Notes: generated by a model not told the origin, from the sequence alone. Counted from the first letter of the stretch, positions 14,172 to 19,945 are shown. The stretch: DNA of 20,000 nt from an uncultured virus (IMG/VR IMGVR_UViG_3300033571_005398) (IMGVR_UViG_3300033571_005398:54761-74760), one strand, 5' to 3'. Translations and numbers: made by a program.

Positions 14172-14357
14172 CTAGAACCGACGGTGTGCGTTTCCAGCAA
14201 ACTTGTTCTCATCAGTAGTGTCCTCGACATTGCTGCCCTCAAACTCCTGCGTCTGAGTGTCAGGCCCCGAGTATTTAGGGTCATTGCGCTGAGTACCCAG
14301 CATGCCTAGACGCGCGTGTATGGCTCCAAGGCCGAAGTCTTCGTTATTAGCTCCCAT
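14172..14357 (-). CDS. Hypothetical 61-aa protein carrying the MGxNNxDF N-terminal tag (probably leaderless)
   Basis: Begins MGANNEDF; TGT-CAAACT lies 6 nt before the ATG. Confidence 0.7.
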   Translation of the reverse strand: MGANNEDFGLGAIHARLGMLGTQRNDPKYSGPDTQTQEFEGSNVEDTTDENKFAGNAHRRF

Positions 14358-14378
14358 ACATACAGTTTGACAGAAGCT

Positions 14379-14654
14379 TTACTTAAAGTCTGGGTTCAGT
14401 TCCTTCATTTTTGCGACGTACTTATCCCGGGCAGACATGATGAACTCTTCGATTTCCTTGTAACGACGAGCGGCCTGTGTCTCAATAGTTGCCATTTTCT
14501 CATCATCAAGTTCGGCGATGTTCTTTCGGATGGTGGCAAGAGCCTCATCCAAAGAAGCTTTTGCTTTTGCTGCTTGGATTTGCTCGCGCTCCCACACCAT
14601 CTCTACGTGCGCGAGGTTCTTAGCAATCCGCTTTTGCTGGTTCTTTCCGGACAT
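14379..14654 (-). CDS. Hypothetical helical protein (likely start MSGKNQQ at 14654)
   Basis: SD AAGGAG precedes the ATG at 14654; 91 aa, charged and helical. Confidence 0.75.
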   Translation of the reverse strand: MSGKNQQKRIAKNLAHVEMVWEREQIQAAKAKASLDEALATIRKNIAELDDEKMATIETQAARRYKEIEEFIMSARDKYVAKMKELNPDFK

Positions 14655-14656
14655 CG

Positions 14657-15118
14657 TTACTCCTTTATTACGTCTAGGTATTCGGGGCATTGCCATTCCG
14701 CAAAAGCCTGTTCGGCATCTGCATACGACTCGTATTCTGGCGCATTGTACGGATAGATGTACACATGGCCATCTTGTGGCATTACGCGCAACACAACAAG
14801 GCCAGAAGTGCTGTTTGCGGCAACTTCCCAATAGCCAAGGTGATTAACTGCATTTGGGTCCCACAGCATCCAGTTATCTGGGTTTGTAATAGAACCGTTT
14901 ACGTTAGAACACTGCGTCGATAACCCCGCTACAACTGCGCCAATAACGGTTGTTGCAGAAGCCTGTTGTGGAACCGGAGGAGCAGCAGGTGTCTCGAAAG
15001 CTACTGTCACAGTCTCGACAGGGGCTTCGGGTGCAGCGGTGGATACGCCAACGGCACTGCCGATAATCGTGCCAGCGCCAATGATTATGCCTATAAGTGG
15101 TCCGGTCATGGAATTCAT
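14657..15118 (-). CDS. Membrane-anchored or secreted protein
   Basis: N-terminal hydrophobic segment PLIGIIIGAGTIIGSAVGV, P/A/T linker and a two-Cys C-terminal domain. Confidence 0.7.
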   Translation of the reverse strand: MNSMTGPLIGIIIGAGTIIGSAVGVSTAAPEAPVETVTVAFETPAAPPVPQQASATTVIGAVVAGLSTQCSNVNGSITNPDNWMLWDPNAVNHLGYWEVAANSTSGLVVLRVMPQDGHVYIYPYNAPEYESYADAEQAFAEWQCPEYLDVIKE

Positions 15119-15125
15119 GTTGCAT

Positions 15126-15156
15126 AGACTAGCACAGCATTTGCTGATAATGTCAA
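15126..15156 (-). promoter_or_regulatory. Housekeeping sigma-type promoter (TTGACA-N19-TAGTCT, extended -10 TGC), 7 nt before ATG 15118
   Basis: Minus strand reads TTGACATTATCAGCAAATGCTGTGCTAGTCTATGCAACATG. The 19-nt spacer is longer than consensus. Confidence 0.5.
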
Positions 15157-15159
15157 ACT

Positions 15160-15261
15160 ATGGACGCAACCACACTTCTTGGGGTCATTGGTTCTCTGTT
15201 TATTGGTATTGCTATCGGTGTTTCTGTTTGGAAACACAAACACGATAATCACGATAAGTAA
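15160..15261 (+). CDS. 33-aa single-TM micro-protein (not in ORF track)
   Basis: MDATTLLGVIGSLFIGIAIGVSVWKHKHDNHDK*. GATAAT lies 8 nt before the ATG, consistent with a leaderless transcript. Confidence 0.6.
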   Translation: MDATTLLGVIGSLFIGIAIGVSVWKHKHDNHDK

Positions 15262-15317
15262 GTAATCTCTGCTATCCTTTTGATGGCAATACCAACCATC
15301 TACCAAAAGGAATAAAC

Positions 15318-15431
15318 ATGTCTGAAATTGACGAGACCGTAGAGGTCGAGGCTGAAGAGGTCGAGGCTGAAGAGGTCGAAGCTGAAGAGGTCGAAGCTGA
15401 CGAAGACGCCGACGAGGCTGACTCGGAGTAA
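15318..15431 (+). CDS. 37-aa highly acidic micro-protein (not in ORF track)
   Basis: MSEIDETVEVEAEEVEAEEVEAEEVEADEDADEADSE*. SD AAGGA, upstream extended -10 TGC-TATCCT (15270-15278) and a downstream terminator. Confidence 0.75.
   Translation: MSEIDETVEVEAEEVEAEEVEAEEVEADEDADEADSE
15342..15401 (+). repeat. 4 x 15-bp tandem repeat GAGGTCGARGCTGAM encoding EVEAE
   Basis: Read directly; in frame within the acidic ORF. Confidence 0.85.
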
Positions 15432-15441
15432 CTACTTTAAG

Positions 15442-15476
15442 AATAAGGGAGACTTAATTGTCTCCCTTATTTTTTT
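15442..15476 (+). terminator. Intrinsic terminator, possibly bidirectional with the convergent tRNA
   Basis: AATAAGGGAGAC-TTAATT-GTCTCCCTTATT followed by TTTTT. Confidence 0.85.
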
Positions 15477-15477
15477 G

Positions 15478-15550
15478 CTCCCCGACGTGGACTCGAACCA
15501 CGAACCTGCGAGTTAACAGCTCGCTGCTCTGCCAATTGAGCTATCGAGGA
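15478..15550 (-). tRNA. trnN: tRNA-Asn (GTT), CCA not encoded
   Basis: TCCTCGA-TAGCTCAATTGGCAGAGC-A-GCGAG-CTGTTAA-CTCGC-AGGTT-CGTGG-TTCGAGT-CCACG-TCGGGGA-G gives a full cloverleaf with anticodon GTT. Confidence 0.95.
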
Positions 15551-15649
15551 ATAACCCATCCTATCCGCAGCTCACGTTCCAATTCGCTACGGCAGGTGCT
15601 CTAGCCACTCTAGGAACGAGTTGTTGGCCAACACTTTTCGGCGGGTTAT
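15551..15649 (-). ncRNA. Candidate 99-nt structured RNA forming the 5' leader of tRNA-Asn
   Basis: Terminal stem ATAACCC/GGGTTAT, internal stems CCGTAGC/GCTGCGG and CTAG/CTAG, and a possible pseudoknot CGTTCC/GGAACG. It starts 6 nt after a -10-like TATGCT (15661-15656). Confidence 0.5.
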
Positions 15650-15665
15650 AGGTACAGCATACAGG

Positions 15666-15959
15666 CTATTTGCCGACTTTTTCCGCCCACGCTTGGCCGC
15701 TTTTTGTACGTACACTACTGTGCTGTGGTGCCGTAACGCCCAAGGTTTTAGCGTGGTTCCATAGTCCTGTGGCAATTCCCTTGCCTCGGTGCTCTGGGTC
15801 TACCGAGATGTCTTCAACTCGGCCATGCTGCCGATTCCAGCGCATGTACCCAACAACATCTCCCACAGCTGGGTCAAAGGCCTCGAGCTCATGGGAGGTT
15901 GGGTGCGTATCCGTAAAGGTGTATGAGATTCCGTTGAAGTCTGCTTTATTGCGGCCCAT
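15666..15959 (-). CDS. GNAT-family acetyltransferase with MGRNKADF tag
   Basis: Acetyl-CoA-binding motif A ISVDPEHRGKGIATGL. Confidence 0.85.
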   Translation of the reverse strand: MGRNKADFNGISYTFTDTHPTSHELEAFDPAVGDVVGYMRWNRQHGRVEDISVDPEHRGKGIATGLWNHAKTLGVTAPQHSSVRTKSGQAWAEKVGK

Positions 15960-16212
15960 CAGCCAGACCCCTTACCTTGAAGCCGATGCGCGAGTTGTGG
16001 ATACCAAACTCTTTGGCCGCCCCCGAGTGGCGTTGAATGTCCTCGGAAGGCTCTACGTGATAAAGCTTAGAGCCGTAGCTAGCGGCGACTTCACGGTTGG
16101 TGGAAGCCCACGCAACTCCGTCAGTACGTGGTTCTACAAGGTCACCGGGGTTGAGGTCAGCGTCTGTGCCGTGAAACAGCCCTTTGGCAAAATCGTTGTT
16201 GTTTCTACCCAC
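15946..16212 (-). CDS. Arr-like ADP-ribosyltransferase-fold protein with (M)GRNNNDF tag (likely GTG start at 16212)
   Basis: LFHGTDADLNPGDLVEP...AWAST...AASYG...LYHVEP...SRIGFKVRG. SD GAGGA lies 5 nt before the GTG, which overlaps the upstream stop by 8 nt. Confidence 0.7.
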   Translation of the reverse strand: MGRNNNDFAKGLFHGTDADLNPGDLVEPRTDGVAWASTNREVAASYGSKLYHVEPSEDIQRHSGAAKEFGIHNSRIGFKVRGLADGPQ

Positions 16213-16558
16213 GTTGTTCCTCATTATCTGGAGTGATTGTTGTGGGTAGGTAATACCCCTTTGTAGTTTTGGACCAAGCATCGCCTGCTTCAGTACGAAC
16301 GCCAGAGTGCCTAGGGCGCGGAATGTGGGGCGATGATTCTGCCATTACTCGCGCGAAGTCAAACATCCCAGTCGCAATACCTTTACGCCGCCAGTCAGGG
16401 TCAACATAGATGTCGTTAATCTTTCCACCCTGATTAGACCAGTGCAGGTAACCGACACCCTGCCCTTCTCCGGGCTCTTTGGCGGAGACAAAGTGGTCCC
16501 CGTTGAAACGCGAATAGCGAAAGGTAACTCCGTGAAAGTCTGCGTTGTTCCTGCCCAT
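16205..16558 (-). CDS. GNAT-family acetyltransferase with MGRNNADF tag
   Basis: IYVDPDWRRKGIATGM. Paralogue of 15666..15959, sharing VGY.xW and HS.VRT..G.AW. Confidence 0.85.
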   Translation of the reverse strand: MGRNNADFHGVTFRYSRFNGDHFVSAKEPGEGQGVGYLHWSNQGGKINDIYVDPDWRRKGIATGMFDFARVMAESSPHIPRPRHSGVRTEAGDAWSKTTKGYYLPTTITPDNEEQRG

Positions 16559-16806
16559 TACTGTATGCGCCTCTTTACTCTGAAGCCCTTACTAGCGCGA
16601 AGCATTTTGGCATCCACTACTGTGTCGTAGTGCTCAACGCCCTCACTTTCTACAGGCTCTACTGCGTACACGTCTCCAAATCCTCTGGCATACCATTTTT
16701 GGTCGGTAGCAAAAGCGTGAGTGTGCTCTCCCTGTGGAGTAATGATGTCACCTTTTTTAAACGGGTGAGAACTACCGTGATAAAAGTCCCCGTTATTTCT
16801 ACCCAT
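16558..16806 (-). CDS. Arr-like ADP-ribosyltransferase-fold protein with MGRNNGDF tag
   Basis: FYHGSSHPFKKGDIITP...HAFATD...ARGFGDVYAVEP...SKGFRV. Confidence 0.7.
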   Translation of the reverse strand: MGRNNGDFYHGSSHPFKKGDIITPQGEHTHAFATDQKWYARGFGDVYAVEPVESEGVEHYDTVVDAKMLRASKGFRVKRRIQ

Positions 16807-17134
16807 TAAGCTCTCCCGTTATTTTGAAGCCTTTTTGACTTTTAAATATCTTTGTTTTGCGAGATTTAGCCAAAGGGTATTTTACGCGGTTCACGATAAG
16901 GTTCTCTTCTTGGTCCACGGGTTCTACGGTAAAGACTCGTGCGGGAACGGTTTCTCCCCGTAACTTCGTTTCAATCTCCGCCTCGGAGTCGGCATAAGCA
17001 CGCGCTTCGTGTTTAGAGTCTGTAGCAAAAGCGTGAGAGTAATTCTTGGGAATTACTACATCCCCTAGGTTAAAGGGGTGTACCGTCCCGTGATAGAGGG
17101 CTGACTCTTCAAAGTCGGCGTTATTGCGACCCAT
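16799..17134 (-). CDS. Arr-like ADP-ribosyltransferase-fold protein with MGRNNADF tag
   Basis: LYHGTVHPFNLGDVVIP...HAFATD...ARAYA...VFTVEP...SQKGFKITGE. Confidence 0.7.
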   Translation of the reverse strand: MGRNNADFEESALYHGTVHPFNLGDVVIPKNYSHAFATDSKHEARAYADSEAEIETKLRGETVPARVFTVEPVDQEENLIVNRVKYPLAKSRKTKIFKSQKGFKITGELNG

Positions 17135-17250
17135 TACACCCTCACAAGACGGCGCTTAATAGGGTCAAAAATCTTGGGACGCTTCTTAAACCCTTTACCG
17201 CAATTGCGGTTGTCGTTGCGTACACCAGAGCCTTTGGATTTACGTGCCAT
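17134..17250 (-). CDS. 38-aa very basic micro-protein (not in ORF track)
   Basis: MARKSKGSGVRNDNRNCGKGFKKRPKIFDPIKRRLVRV*. SD AGGGA; its stop overlaps the next ATG (TAATG). Confidence 0.7.
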   Translation of the reverse strand: MARKSKGSGVRNDNRNCGKGFKKRPKIFDPIKRRLVRV

Positions 17251-17262
17251 GGTAGTTCCCTA

Positions 17263-18921
17263 TTAAAACAGAGTGGGTTGGGTGGGCGGTTGCGTGTCCC
17301 TAGCACCATCAGTCAATGCCGCAGCCCACGCTTTGTGCGCCGCTTTGCCTTCGGCCTCATAGCCGGTTGATGCCAAAGCTTGGCGAACATGCTCATGGTG
17401 GTGGTACAAGTGGCCTAGTGCCAATACTGTCATTCGTTTTTTGGCAGCATCGTCGGCGTACATTCCGTCGGTTTGCCCATTCCACAAGTCTTTCCTGTTT
17501 GGAATGGTATTCATGTTGTTTTCACCCATGGCAACATGCGCACGGGCGGCAATGTACGCAGCGGAGGCCACACGGCCACCAGTTCTAGTTTTGAAGTAGT
17601 TTGCGCCGTAGCCTCCCTCTGACTGCAGCTCTTTCGCGCGCGATGGACGTGACGGGTCAAGCGCTTCTTCATAAGCATCACGGTATTTATGATGCCTATC
17701 CTCGTAACCGTCGGCCGCGCCCTCTTGAATCGGGTCGGGGTAAGACATTGTCATGTCCCGAATATTTGGGTCTATTGAGTGCCCCAACTCATGAGTTAAC
17801 GTGTCGGGTTTAACTCCGGACGAAACAATTACTCGTTTAGATTTAGGTTGTTTAGGTTCAGCTACTTCAGCAGTTGGGTCTGGGACCGCTTCGTGACGCA
17901 AGTGGTACCAAAGCGTTTTGTTTCGTCCACTGTATTCGTTTTCTACAGCTGTTTTTATAGGAGTAGCAATATAGTCTTTGGTGCTTGCCCCCTTGCCCGG
18001 AAAGATGTTTGCGGTGTGCCCCCCGGGTAAATAGTGCACGTCCGTGTCTTTGTCGGGGGAGTACGGCTCTCCTTTGGCGTTAAAGTACGTCGGGGCTACT
18101 GCTTGCTGCGGGGTACGTGGCATATTTTCCGGGTCATTGCGAGAGCTGTACCAACTACCGCTGTCCTCCATCCATCCCGAGAAGCCTTCGGTGAAGAGTC
18201 GGTTGTGCCCGTATCCGTGCTCCTCGCCTAACGCCTCGGTTTGAGCCCGCCACTTGGGGTTAGGAATTGGTGCGCCCCGCTTAGCGGGAGGTAGCGCGGG
18301 CTTTTCTTTAGGCGCAACCCACTCGGACTTGGTTAGTTCATTTAATGTTATGTTTCCAGAGCTAGTGTCGTAGTGGCCCCCCCAAGTTCTTTGTGGGGGG
18401 CGAACCTCTACACCTACTGGTTTTAGGTTGGCCCATTCTTGGTGTGGAATGCCACTTTCGATAGCGGCTTTTCGAACACCTTCAATCTGCATGGTTGCTC
18501 GGTCCACACTAACGCGAGGGGCCCGCTCGCTCAATTGCCTGTAATTTTTAGATGTGTTTGCTCTATCTTCCGGAGTCATCTGGTCTGGAGTAACCTCTTC
18601 ACCGGAAGTTTTGTGTCGAAAGATATTTGTGGGTTTCAGAGGGCCGTTTACACGGCGAAACGCCTCGACGTCACCCGTTCCAAGAACTCGGTCAATAGCT
18701 GCATGGCGTTCGTCATCAGAAATAGACGGGTCTTTACTCGACCCAGTCCCCCAGTGCGGGTCAAATAGCATGCCTTGATAAGAGCTTCCAATGTAAGGAG
18801 AACCAATATGAGGCATGGGGCGTACTTCGGAATTGGTCTCCCCCTCATTTGGGGTGTGAAAAATTGTCTCACCCTGCTCATTAACAAAGTAGGTATTCTT
18901 AAACTGTTTTCCGAGTGGCAT
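17263..18921 (-). CDS. Large protein with zincin-like (HExxH) metallopeptidase motifs
   Basis: GGHYDTSSGNITL ... TLTHELGHSID ... QEGAAD; SD GAAAGG. Confidence 0.6.
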   Translation of the reverse strand: MPLGKQFKNTYFVNEQGETIFHTPNEGETNSEVRPMPHIGSPYIGSSYQGMLFDPHWGTGSSKDPSISDDERHAAIDRVLGTGDVEAFRRVNGPLKPTNIFRHKTSGEEVTPDQMTPEDRANTSKNYRQLSERAPRVSVDRATMQIEGVRKAAIESGIPHQEWANLKPVGVEVRPPQRTWGGHYDTSSGNITLNELTKSEWVAPKEKPALPPAKRGAPIPNPKWRAQTEALGEEHGYGHNRLFTEGFSGWMEDSGSWYSSRNDPENMPRTPQQAVAPTYFNAKGEPYSPDKDTDVHYLPGGHTANIFPGKGASTKDYIATPIKTAVENEYSGRNKTLWYHLRHEAVPDPTAEVAEPKQPKSKRVIVSSGVKPDTLTHELGHSIDPNIRDMTMSYPDPIQEGAADGYEDRHHKYRDAYEEALDPSRPSRAKELQSEGGYGANYFKTRTGGRVASAAYIAARAHVAMGENNMNTIPNRKDLWNGQTDGMYADDAAKKRMTVLALGHLYHHHEHVRQALASTGYEAEGKAAHKAWAAALTDGARDTQPPTQPTLF

Positions 18922-18958: not shown

Positions 18959-19945
18959 CTATTTTGTCGTGGCAGACGCGTTGGACTCATACGAGGTGTT
19001 GGTAGCCTCAAAAAAGTTAACAAGCTGTAAAGTGTCGTTGGCAGCAGCCATCCACTTGGCAGGATTGGTTACGTTGTAGTGCGGACCAAAGCCGAGCTCC
19101 TCAAGACGACGGTCGGCCAAGTACTTGGTGTACTGGCTGGCGTAGTCAGCGTTCAGGCCAAGGATGCCGTGGGGGAACTGGTCACGGTTGTACTGGATTT
19201 CCATGTCTACTGCGTCCAAAATCATCTGCTTGATTTCATCAGCAAACTCGGGCGTGACAATGTCGGGGTTCTCTTCGAGGATGGTTACCACAAGGTTGGT
19301 CCCAAACTTCAAATGAAGGCTCTCATCACGGACAATCCAGTCAACAAGTGAGCCGAAGTTGCGGAGCAGATTACGCTGGCGGAACGACAGGGCCACCATG
19401 AAGCCACTGTAGAACCAGATACCCTCCATGATTACCGAGTAAGCCACGAGGTTACGGACGAAGTCCTGCTTGCCCTCTACGGTTTCAATGTCAAGGCGCT
19501 CTTCCGTCATGCGCGTGATGAACTTGACCTCAAAGTCTTCTTTTGCCTTAATTGACGGCACAGCCACATGCTGAGCGTAAATTGCCTCACGGTCCACCGG
19601 GAACGTCTCGAGCACGTACTCAAAGCTCATGCAGTGGTTGGCTTCTTCCCACATCTGCTTGGCTAGGTACAGGTGGCACTCGGGTGCGCTCAAATAGGGG
19701 TAAACACCAAATGCCAATGCCTTGTTCACAATCAGCTCAGAGGGGTTAAAGAAGCTCATCAAGAAGGTAATGGCGTGCTGCTCGTCCTCAGACATGGTCT
19801 TGAAGTCGGCAATATCTTCGCCAAGCTGAATCTCATTGGGGAACCATGTATTAGCGACCGCTTGGTCGTACAAGTCCATTGCCCACTGATACTTGACAGG
19901 CTTCAAAAGCAAGCCTTCTTGAATACCCTGACCCAAAATTCCCAT
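18959..19945 (-). CDS. nrdB: Ribonucleotide reductase beta subunit, class Ic (R2c)-type signature
   Basis: Ferritin-like ligands FFNPSE, EEANH, MEGIWFYSGF and RDESLH; C-terminal NFFEATNTSY; SD AAGGAG. Confidence 0.93.
   Translation of the reverse strand: MGILGQGIQEGLLLKPVKYQWAMDLYDQAVANTWFPNEIQLGEDIADFKTMSEDEQHAITFLMSFFNPSELIVNKALAFGVYPYLSAPECHLYLAKQMWEEANHCMSFEYVLETFPVDREAIYAQHVAVPSIKAKEDFEVKFITRMTEERLDIETVEGKQDFVRNLVAYSVIMEGIWFYSGFMVALSFRQRNLLRNFGSLVDWIVRDESLHLKFGTNLVVTILEENPDIVTPEFADEIKQMILDAVDMEIQYNRDQFPHGILGLNADYASQYTKYLADRRLEELGFGPHYNVTNPAKWMAAANDTLQLVNFFEATNTSYESNASATTK

Follow-up and report, generated by a model that had tools for sequence, protein, structure and literature searches.

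The internal proteins of T-even phages are described, in the excerpts of PMC3012670 that bear on them, as sharing only their capsid-targeting sequence (CTS). The first 30 residues of the phage P1 protein DarB are enough for capsid targeting, according to the relevant portion of PMC9024508, and in part of PMC5512222 ADP-ribosyltransferase (ART) domains, GNAT acetyltransferase domains located beside an ART, and DdrB-like ParB domains are given as hub domains in proteins for which packaging and injection are predicted. Here, we report on a short N-terminal peptide, MGRNNxDF, that with minor variation opens six small genes in a 20,000-nucleotide (nt) stretch of DNA from an uncultured virus (IMGVR_UViG_3300033571_005398:54761-74760). 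This stretch, referred to as the window, forms the final 20 kb of an IMG/VR record of 74,760 bp with a G+C content of 51% and an estimated completeness of 77%. All six starts are on the minus strand and lie where the original prediction had placed them, which had proposed that the peptide is a tag shared by unrelated proteins and a candidate packaging or targeting signal. We find that MGRNNxDF (tag 1) is a modular, peptide-level N-terminal tag on unrelated proteins and not a DNA repeat or an element of a fold, and it looks like an address label.

A peptide tag on unrelated small proteins

In the six frames of the 74,760-bp genome the pattern G.N..DF has six matches, all of which (6/6) come directly after an ATG or GTG. 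This is far above what was obtained from 200 first-order Markov simulations, in which the mean number of matches was 0.325 (maximum 3) and the mean number of start-adjacent matches was 0.015 (maximum 1), and this comparison, a check proposed along with the original prediction, came out in favor of the tag. Searching IMG/VR with a degenerate DNA pattern for M-G-[R/S]-N-N-x-D-F identified 76 loci. A match was considered gene-start-like if it had a stop within 30 codons upstream and an open reading frame (ORF) of at least 40 amino acids (aa). By this definition 62 of the 65 distinct Arg-type matches are gene-start-like, compared with 0/5 of the Ser type, such that none of the start-like matches has Ser (AGY) at the Arg position though the search pattern permitted it. 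A scan of bacterial genomes, aimed at prophages and the host, provided 80 loci with flanks that were assessed among the matches listed. These comprise 59 Arg and 21 Ser matches, which is the chance ratio, with 3/59 of the Arg matches start-like, and the matches listed are chance-like only. The tag is real and, as far as searched, is seen in viral contigs only.

Using a slightly looser start rule, 69 distinct tagged ORFs were gathered, one of which (L052) is probably due to chance. Once the first 9 residues are removed, the 69 ORFs fall into 36 BLAST families. They are 45-221 residues long (median 86 aa) and very hydrophilic (grand average of hydropathy -1.0), with a median isoelectric point of 6.1. 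Each has at most one recognized domain; the recognized cargo consists of mini-GNATs, Arr-like ARTs, and ParB_N proteins, and many of the ORFs are tiny and without annotation. The 164-aa tagged protein of locus L077 matches ParB_N at 26.3 bits, equal to the cut-off of 26.3 (E = 7.9e-6), and one cargo is probably an R-S-E ADP-ribosyltransferase, on an Atlas lead only. Gly is found at position 11 in 33 of the 69 ORFs, and the tag is often extended by [HNQ]-x-G. A 500-aa "tagged" baseplate-hub-like protein (L020, L040, L063, and L067) was set aside as a chance match, located inside a longer ORF in unrelated phages. Outside the window, the phage's own genome (L081:14849-15640, minus strand) encodes a 263-aa protein of phrog_3170 (function unknown) that starts with the tag-plus-extension-like sequence MARNVRDLQEG.

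A profile of the first 42 residues was also compared with 5.8 billion proteins; of the 7,998 candidates scored, just 10 reached E <= 10, indicating that the tag is too short for a profile search on this scale. Against 1.84 billion representatives, this profile matched 22 proteins at E <= 0.001, and in all 22 the match begins at residue 1.

Within the window the codons for the conserved residues differ, as originally noted (Arg CGC/AGA/AGG, Gly GGC/GGT/GGA, Asn AAT/AAC, and Phe TTC/TTT). Among the tag-1 ORFs, Arg is encoded by CGY in 49 cases and by AGR in 17, the third positions of Gly and Asp approximate background usage, and most third positions match the background. Because the synonymous sites vary, selection acts on the tag-1 peptide. 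Unbiased evidence comes from homologues of the 111-aa tagged protein of the window, as 4/4 non-self homologues keep the tag at 40-43% overall identity. In the AlphaFold2 (AF2) model of this protein, residues 1-8 are unstructured with a predicted local distance difference test (pLDDT) score of about 50. In the model of the 117-aa GNAT (pLDDT 71.2), residues 1-7 score below 50 and the first strand starts from residue 12. Across the Arr-like family, a linker of anything from 1 to 14 residues separates the tag from the catalytic HG motif, and in the 82-aa protein the tag directly abuts the YHG motif. In these models the tag is disordered and outside both folds, and the motif is not a core strand of either the Arr-like or the GNAT prediction; a core strand in both would have counted as a refutation under the terms set with the original prediction. 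The number of families, this disorder, the variable linker, and a second tag on the same families (see below) uphold the proposal of a peptide-level tag on unrelated proteins.

It is most improbable that the shared start is functionless, whether as a relic of a single ancestral gene that was duplicated in tandem or as a product of chance. The window array does hold paralogues (two GNATs and three Arr-like proteins), and some pattern matches are due to chance, namely the MGS... matches and the internal match in the baseplate-hub-like protein. However, the tag is found on at least two modeled folds and on 36 BLAST families, and it is invariant where the cargo has diverged to about 40% identity. 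The simulations, the bacterial-genome control, and the occurrence of a second tag on the same families largely refute this explanation. A frameshift or read-through fusion with the upstream gene was also rejected, as the upstream sequences show no slippery site in common and the +1 frame closes after four codons.

By Pfam, two of the tagged genes in the window are GNAT acetyltransferases with predicted activity (Table 1). Both score above the cut-off, in keeping with the fold originally assigned to them, and the two proteins (97 and 117 aa) are 42% identical with the tag common to both. The mini-GNATs keep the R/Q-x-K-G-I-A motif of the acetyl-CoA region, and at ~100 residues the fold is truncated. 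The Arr-like assignment made at the same time held by fold and conserved motifs, but not by the Pfam cut-off. The 111-aa protein reaches 20.6 bits for Arr-ms (E = 5e-4), below the cut-off of 25. Its AF2 model (pLDDT 80.7) has the Arr structure 2hw2 as the top Foldseek match (E = 3.3e-4, query TM-score 0.64), with 2hw2, 9iaf, and 9iba ranked first (E = 3.3e-4 to 4e-3, probability 1.00) and other ART folds thereafter. The 88- and 82-aa proteins align with the 111-aa protein, and in the alignment of the Arr-like family H15, G16, E71, and P72 are invariant or nearly so, with the His-Gly and acidic motifs kept. By modeled fold and conserved motifs, the 111-aa protein is most like an Arr-type (H-Y-E) ART despite its sub-cut-off Pfam score. 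The 82-aa protein has no Pfam Arr-ms match and is shorter than the Arr chains of 138-145 residues matched by Foldseek. The GTG start of the 88-aa gene is supported by a 79% identical relative in L046 that starts with ATG. The 61-aa gene is uncoupled from any upstream gene and has conserved 59-aa relatives that begin MGANNQDF and MGANNSDF. Judging from their sequences, Arr-like ARTs of 82-111 residues and GNATs of ~100 residues may be of interest as minimal enzymes.

Table 1. Tagged genes, their neighbors in the window, and loci with an endonuclease gene adjacent or nearby
Feature	Location	Strand	Description
Tagged gene 1	16799..17134	-	MGRNNADF, 111 aa, predicted Arr-like ADP-ribosyltransferase; ATG overlaps TAA of upstream 38-aa gene (TAATG)
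Tagged gene 2	16558..16806	-	MGRNNGDF, 82 aa, predicted minimal Arr-like protein; aligned with Arr-like family
Tagged gene 3	16205..16558	-	MGRNNADF, 117 aa, mini-GNAT; Pfam Acetyltransf_7 30.4 bits (cut-off 27)
Tagged gene 4	15946..16212	-	GTG start, GRNNNDF, 88 aa, predicted Arr-like protein; weak Arr-ms match (E = 0.009, 16.7 bits, cut-off 25)
Tagged gene 5	15666..15959	-	MGRNKADF, 97 aa, mini-GNAT; Pfam Acetyltransf_1 33.8 bits (cut-off 20.7)
Tagged gene 6	14172..14357	-	MGANNEDF, 61 aa, without family match; BLAST family 13
Ribonucleotide reductase small subunit (RNR-beta)	18959..19945	-	phrog_86, E = 8.5e-71; first gene of apparent transcription unit
552-aa HExxH protein	17263..18921	-	Located between RNR-beta and array
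38-aa very basic peptide gene	17134..17250	-	Precedes tagged array; no Pfam or PHROG match
tRNA-Asn (GTT)	15477..15550	-	End of array
12-bp hairpin	15443..15473	.	Flanked by A run and T run; -21 kcal/mol, z -4.4, 0/200 shuffles as good
HNH endonuclease loci	L026, L013, L043, L078, L012, L021	n/a	Pfam HNH_3

A second tag and the exchange of tagged genes

A near-identical complete record (G001) is 94.5 kb in length with terminal repeats. The phage encodes a contractile tail and an HK97-type capsid, and it has replication genes of its own along with genes for an integrase and WhiB; based on this content, including the WhiB gene, the host is an actinobacterium. The closest capsid proteins from cultured phages are those of Streptomyces phage BRock and its relatives (60-62% identity), and capsid relatives are encoded on at least 598 IMG/VR stretches. 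The tag-bearing phages are some members of an uncultured group of freshwater Actinobacteria phages that are roughly 95 kb and contractile-tailed. Those with tag 1 have a G+C content of 41-52%, and their host species are probably several. The cultured phages BRock, E3, and Cane17 were checked and none has the tag, and a 5.5-kb region compared with 50,697 phage records gave no near match except for the tRNA.

G011 is a complete relative without tag 1, with a portal protein 98% and a capsid protein 88% identical to those of G001. Its array genes (L288:2161-5627, about 21.2-24.6 kb) begin with M[SA]A[QE][DN]NLS (tag 2), and a scan with the tag-2 pattern gave 40 loci (L302-L341) with 53-54 distinct ORFs and an extension of x-x-[QL]-[FWL]. 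Codons of both the CTN and the TTR type are found for Leu7 of tag 2, indicating that this tag too is kept at the peptide level. Four enzyme families carry either tag, with 9 and 17, 12 and 2, 2 and 11, and 1 and 12 members for tag 1 and tag 2, respectively. Arr-like, GNAT, ParB-like, and R-S-E-like proteins are each found with either tag, and a tag-2 ParB-like member is a weak match (E = 0.023). Because the second tag shares these four families with tag 1, tag and cargo are modules independent of each other. Among the loci and long records examined, 70 have tag 1 only, 41 have tag 2 only, and none has both; considering the long records, 10/10 with tag 1 are without tag 2 and 6/6 with tag 2 are without tag 1. 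G+C content does not separate tag 1 from tag 2. An unbiased search of ten genomes for shared N-termini recovered the tag sets in G001, G002, and G011, and in three tagless genomes it returned only paralogues or low-complexity matches. We consider it probable that the two peptides are interchangeable N-terminal labels of 8-12 residues, with at least two alleles that never occur in one genome, and that they direct solo mini-enzymes and very small proteins to a common destination.

In G011 (L288:8079-8749), a 123-aa GNAT and a 100-aa protein without a known fold have yet another start in common, M(M)SNLGKQF, which is the third. Beyond the end of the record studied here, G001 has a run of untagged mini-GNAT-like genes (L301:1420-5585, about 77.4-81.6 kb). 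The run includes two paralogues with the common start MAQPELP and a 118-aa Arr-like paralogue starting MSRREEF, which looks like a decayed tag.

Tagged genes are accessory, rapidly exchanged small effector genes. Records picked for the tag have 1-6 tagged genes each, and in many loci one hypervariable tagged gene directly follows a conserved 118-130-aa gene (neighbor family 2, 26 loci). Junctions between genes are where the tagged genes are inserted, as seen between neighbor families 2 and 9. In G013 the flanking genes leave no space for another gene at this slot, and the slot of the phage studied here is without a tagged gene. In four loci, which belong to those with the tagged gene 2-2.4 kb upstream of the terminase gene, a small HNH endonuclease gene (96-110 aa) comes directly after the tagged gene. 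It is close by in two more loci, and is a possible route of cassette mobility.

The junctions themselves have a signature. A TAATG start is found for 54 of the 69 tag-1 ORFs, compared with 138 of 535 other genes, and in 64/69 the stop of the upstream ORF falls between -10 and +11 nt relative to the tagged start. The overlap takes the form of TAATG, ATGGGTAG, or a TAA inside AAT-AAY. In the window, the gene upstream of the 82-aa gene stops at the TAG inside ATGGGTAG, and the stop of the 88-aa gene is a TAA formed within the tag codons AAT-AAA of the 97-aa gene, giving a 14-nt overlap (15946-15959). Overlaps of 1 or 4 nt (ATGA or TAATG-type) are seen at 47 of 53 tag-2 starts, against a base rate of 28% over ten genomes. 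Codon 4 of tag 1 is AAT in 59/69, against a background of 50%; AAT together with codon 5 therefore provides a TAA in the third frame, such that the first 14 nt close both other frames.

This nucleotide-level junction bias is real, without explaining the seven invariant residues. It raises the alternative that the tag is a 5' adaptor of promoter-less gene cassettes that ends the upstream frame, restarts translation, and acts as a recombination site, with the peptide a constrained by-product. The TAATG excess, the proximity of upstream stops, the tag-2 overlaps, and the AAT bias, with its TAA in use at 15946-15959, are all consistent with an adaptor, as are the insertion of tagged genes at gene junctions and the HNH endonuclease gene nearby in six loci. 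However, we regard this explanation as improbable. Synonymous positions are mostly free, as illustrated by the two codon families of Arg and by CTN and TTR at Leu7 of tag 2, so that amino acids and not nucleotides are kept. In addition, a restart signal has no need of seven invariant residues, and the 61-aa family keeps the tag though it is uncoupled from the upstream gene.

Candidate readers of the tag

By analogy with the phage systems introduced above, we tentatively favor the possibility that the tagged proteins are loaded into the virion. One common partner would read the tag, the most likely being the assembling virion. Mini-enzymes (two types of ART, GNAT, and ParB-like) and small unknown proteins would be carried in the particle and enter the next host along with the DNA. 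In other phages these domain types are joined covalently in "polyvalent" virion proteins, a linkage that the tag would replace, and the mutually exclusive tag of the sister phage, M[SA]A[QE][DN]NLS-x-x-[QL]-[FW], would serve the same purpose. A homologue of the mini-GNATs is an internal domain of Rhodococcus phage E3 gp70, which is annotated as structural and encoded two genes before the portal gene, and also of the 504-aa Cane17 gp71. In the E3 gp70 record (L204:2125-5284) the gene is flagged as a pseudogene and as a join of two pieces. Counted in favor of virion loading, the cargo belongs to classes for which delivery in virions is known or predicted, the window array shares its strand with the large terminase gene and is situated ~6 kb upstream of it, and in eight other loci the tagged gene is about 2-2.4 kb upstream of a terminase gene.

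Several observations weigh against loading into the virion. Conservation of tag 1 within the collected set is in part a product of the search pattern, in which residues were fixed, and tag 1 is present in none of seven long relatives picked by capsid similarity (tag 2 in one of the seven). Tag type does not follow the head proteins: the portal and capsid proteins of the tag-1 phages G004, G005, and G007 are 66-70% identical to those of tag-1 G001, compared with the 98% and 88% of tag-2 G011, and tag type is likewise independent of scaffold phylogeny. In ten complete or near-complete genomes, 0/786 gene families are present in at least five of six tag-1 genomes and absent from the three tagless ones. 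Family scans (PHROGs) recognized no prohead protease in the portal-scaffold-capsid module. Tagged genes have early-looking operon neighbors, the five-gene array of the window appears to form one transcription unit with RNR-beta, a gene of nucleotide metabolism, and the slot used in the largest locus group is, in this phage, distant from the head genes and set amid genes of recombination and replication. A co-fold of the 111-aa tagged protein with the scaffold and the capsid protein (all as alignments) scored 0.00, a value obtained without controls that does not bear on binding either way.

Since no gene family tracks the tag and tag type is independent of head phylogeny, there are three options for the reader: a core phage component that is conserved, a component of the host, or no reader at all. 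The second of these corresponds to an alternative that we rate only slightly lower than virion loading, in which tagged proteins are made after infection, are not packaged, and are docked by the tag on one conserved host component, either a hub that they modify or a protease or adaptor for which the tag is a degron. Apparent transcription of the array with RNR-beta and the common slot among replication and recombination genes fit this possibility, as does the lack of any co-occurring phage gene family. With a reader other than a variable phage protein, tag type would be expected to be independent of portal and capsid phylogeny, as it is, and the mutual exclusion of the tags (10 tag-1 records and 6 tag-2 records) also agrees with a host reader. 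Furthermore, residue 2 is always small (G, S, or A). Methionine aminopeptidase removes the initiator Met when residue 2 is small, so that the tagged proteins probably lose theirs and thereby expose a defined N-terminus. However, tag 1 is spread across phages of 41-52% G+C with probably several host species, for which a very conserved host site would be needed, and the tag of the sister phage is wholly different. Many of the cargos are hydrophilic proteins of 45-90 residues without an enzyme fold, for which delivery to a substrate lacks obvious meaning. We know of no host-binding or degron motif that resembles the tag, although no search for one was made, and this too counts against a host reader. 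The original prediction had named docking on one common partner as the alternative to prohead loading, and we find the two about equally open.

If the destination is the virion, the tags would amount to a protease-independent capsid-targeting code in actinophages, a non-covalent counterpart of polyvalent fusion, and if it is a host machine they would be an undescribed phage-to-host addressing code. Should the loading or docking signal be true, an 8-residue peptide could deliver arbitrary proteins via phages of the most abundant freshwater bacteria or in the course of infection by them. The tag also flags host-takeover or counter-defense genes that are otherwise invisible in metagenomes, as a start-of-gene motif finds members of at least 36 families, most of which are unannotated. 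Two exclusive tag alleles on the same enzyme families provide a natural swap experiment for finding the reader. In the literature, no relevant paper containing the peptide strings of either tag was found in a search of texts other than supplements. In the portion seen of the main text of a freshwater actinophage paper (PMC6802176), the only ARTs mentioned are VIP2-like and the term "N-terminal" does not occur.

Surroundings of the array and comparison with described systems

The gene order at the array is RNR-beta, the 552-aa HExxH protein, the 38-aa basic peptide, the five tagged genes, tRNA-Asn, and a strong hairpin. The gaps between RNR-beta and the following genes are 37 and 12 nt, and terminator-like hairpins are located upstream of RNR-beta. 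The 552-aa HExxH protein has no match in Pfam, PHROGs, or PDB sequences and no MPTase match, and a relative with a 98% identical RNR-beta is without it. As a reader or processor of the tag it was ruled out because it is found in just one of the 76 tag loci (L009), which is the locus of the near-identical phage. The 38-aa peptide also precedes the arrays of relatives, with 100% identity in L019, L032, L036, and L064 and 69-72% identity in L062 and L077. It is confined to loci with RNR beside the array and was therefore ruled out as a general partner of the tag.

The hairpin at the end of the array is not listed by a consensus terminator scan, and is probably a two-way terminator that closes the transcription unit of the array. 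Two tiny plus-strand ORFs (15160-15261 and 15318-15431) lie between the minus-strand units. One is a 33-aa hydrophobic peptide, and the other is an acidic peptide of 37 aa with an EAEEV-type repeat that ends at the shared hairpin. tRNA-Asn is the commonest tRNA beside tagged arrays, found at 8 of 60 scanned loci (L014, L019, L023, L046, L049, L062, L306, and L326), and an invariant Asn is present in both tags.

Among cellular compartments, encapsulins use a short terminal, usually C-terminal, peptide on unrelated cargo enzymes that binds inside an HK97-fold shell. The tag is similarly a short terminal peptide on unrelated enzymes, but it is N-terminal and phage-borne. Compared with the T-even CTS, the phage lineage and host phylum are different, and the motif is not known to resemble that of T4. 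Unlike in the T-even phages, family scans recognized no prohead protease or cleavage site here, and the tagged genes are in early-looking operons with translational coupling and two alternative tags in sister phages. Nevertheless, as with the T-even CTS of IPI-III and Alt, a short N-terminal peptide is the sole feature common to diverse, fast-exchanged small proteins that include an ADP-ribosyltransferase, and the T-even CTS genes also occupy hyperplastic loci (PMC3012670, in the sections concerned). Polyvalent proteins (Iyer et al. 2017) have a similar repertoire, with an ART, a GNAT beside an ART, and ParB-like domains, and mini-GNAT homologues are found inside E3 gp70 and Cane17 gp71. However, polyvalent proteins are described in the excerpts of that study as having 2-15 domains per polypeptide, whereas the genes reported here have one domain each (~80-190 residues) and their own tag. 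In the P1 Dar system, an N-terminal signal of less than 30 residues directs cargo such as DarB into a myovirus head (PMC9024508, in part), and DdrB, a ParB-like member of the Dar set, is given as a head protein in portions of PMC9024508 and PMC5512222. The Dar proteins are large and, in those portions of PMC9024508, without a consensus signal, in contrast to the near-invariant 8-mer that many tiny proteins carry here.

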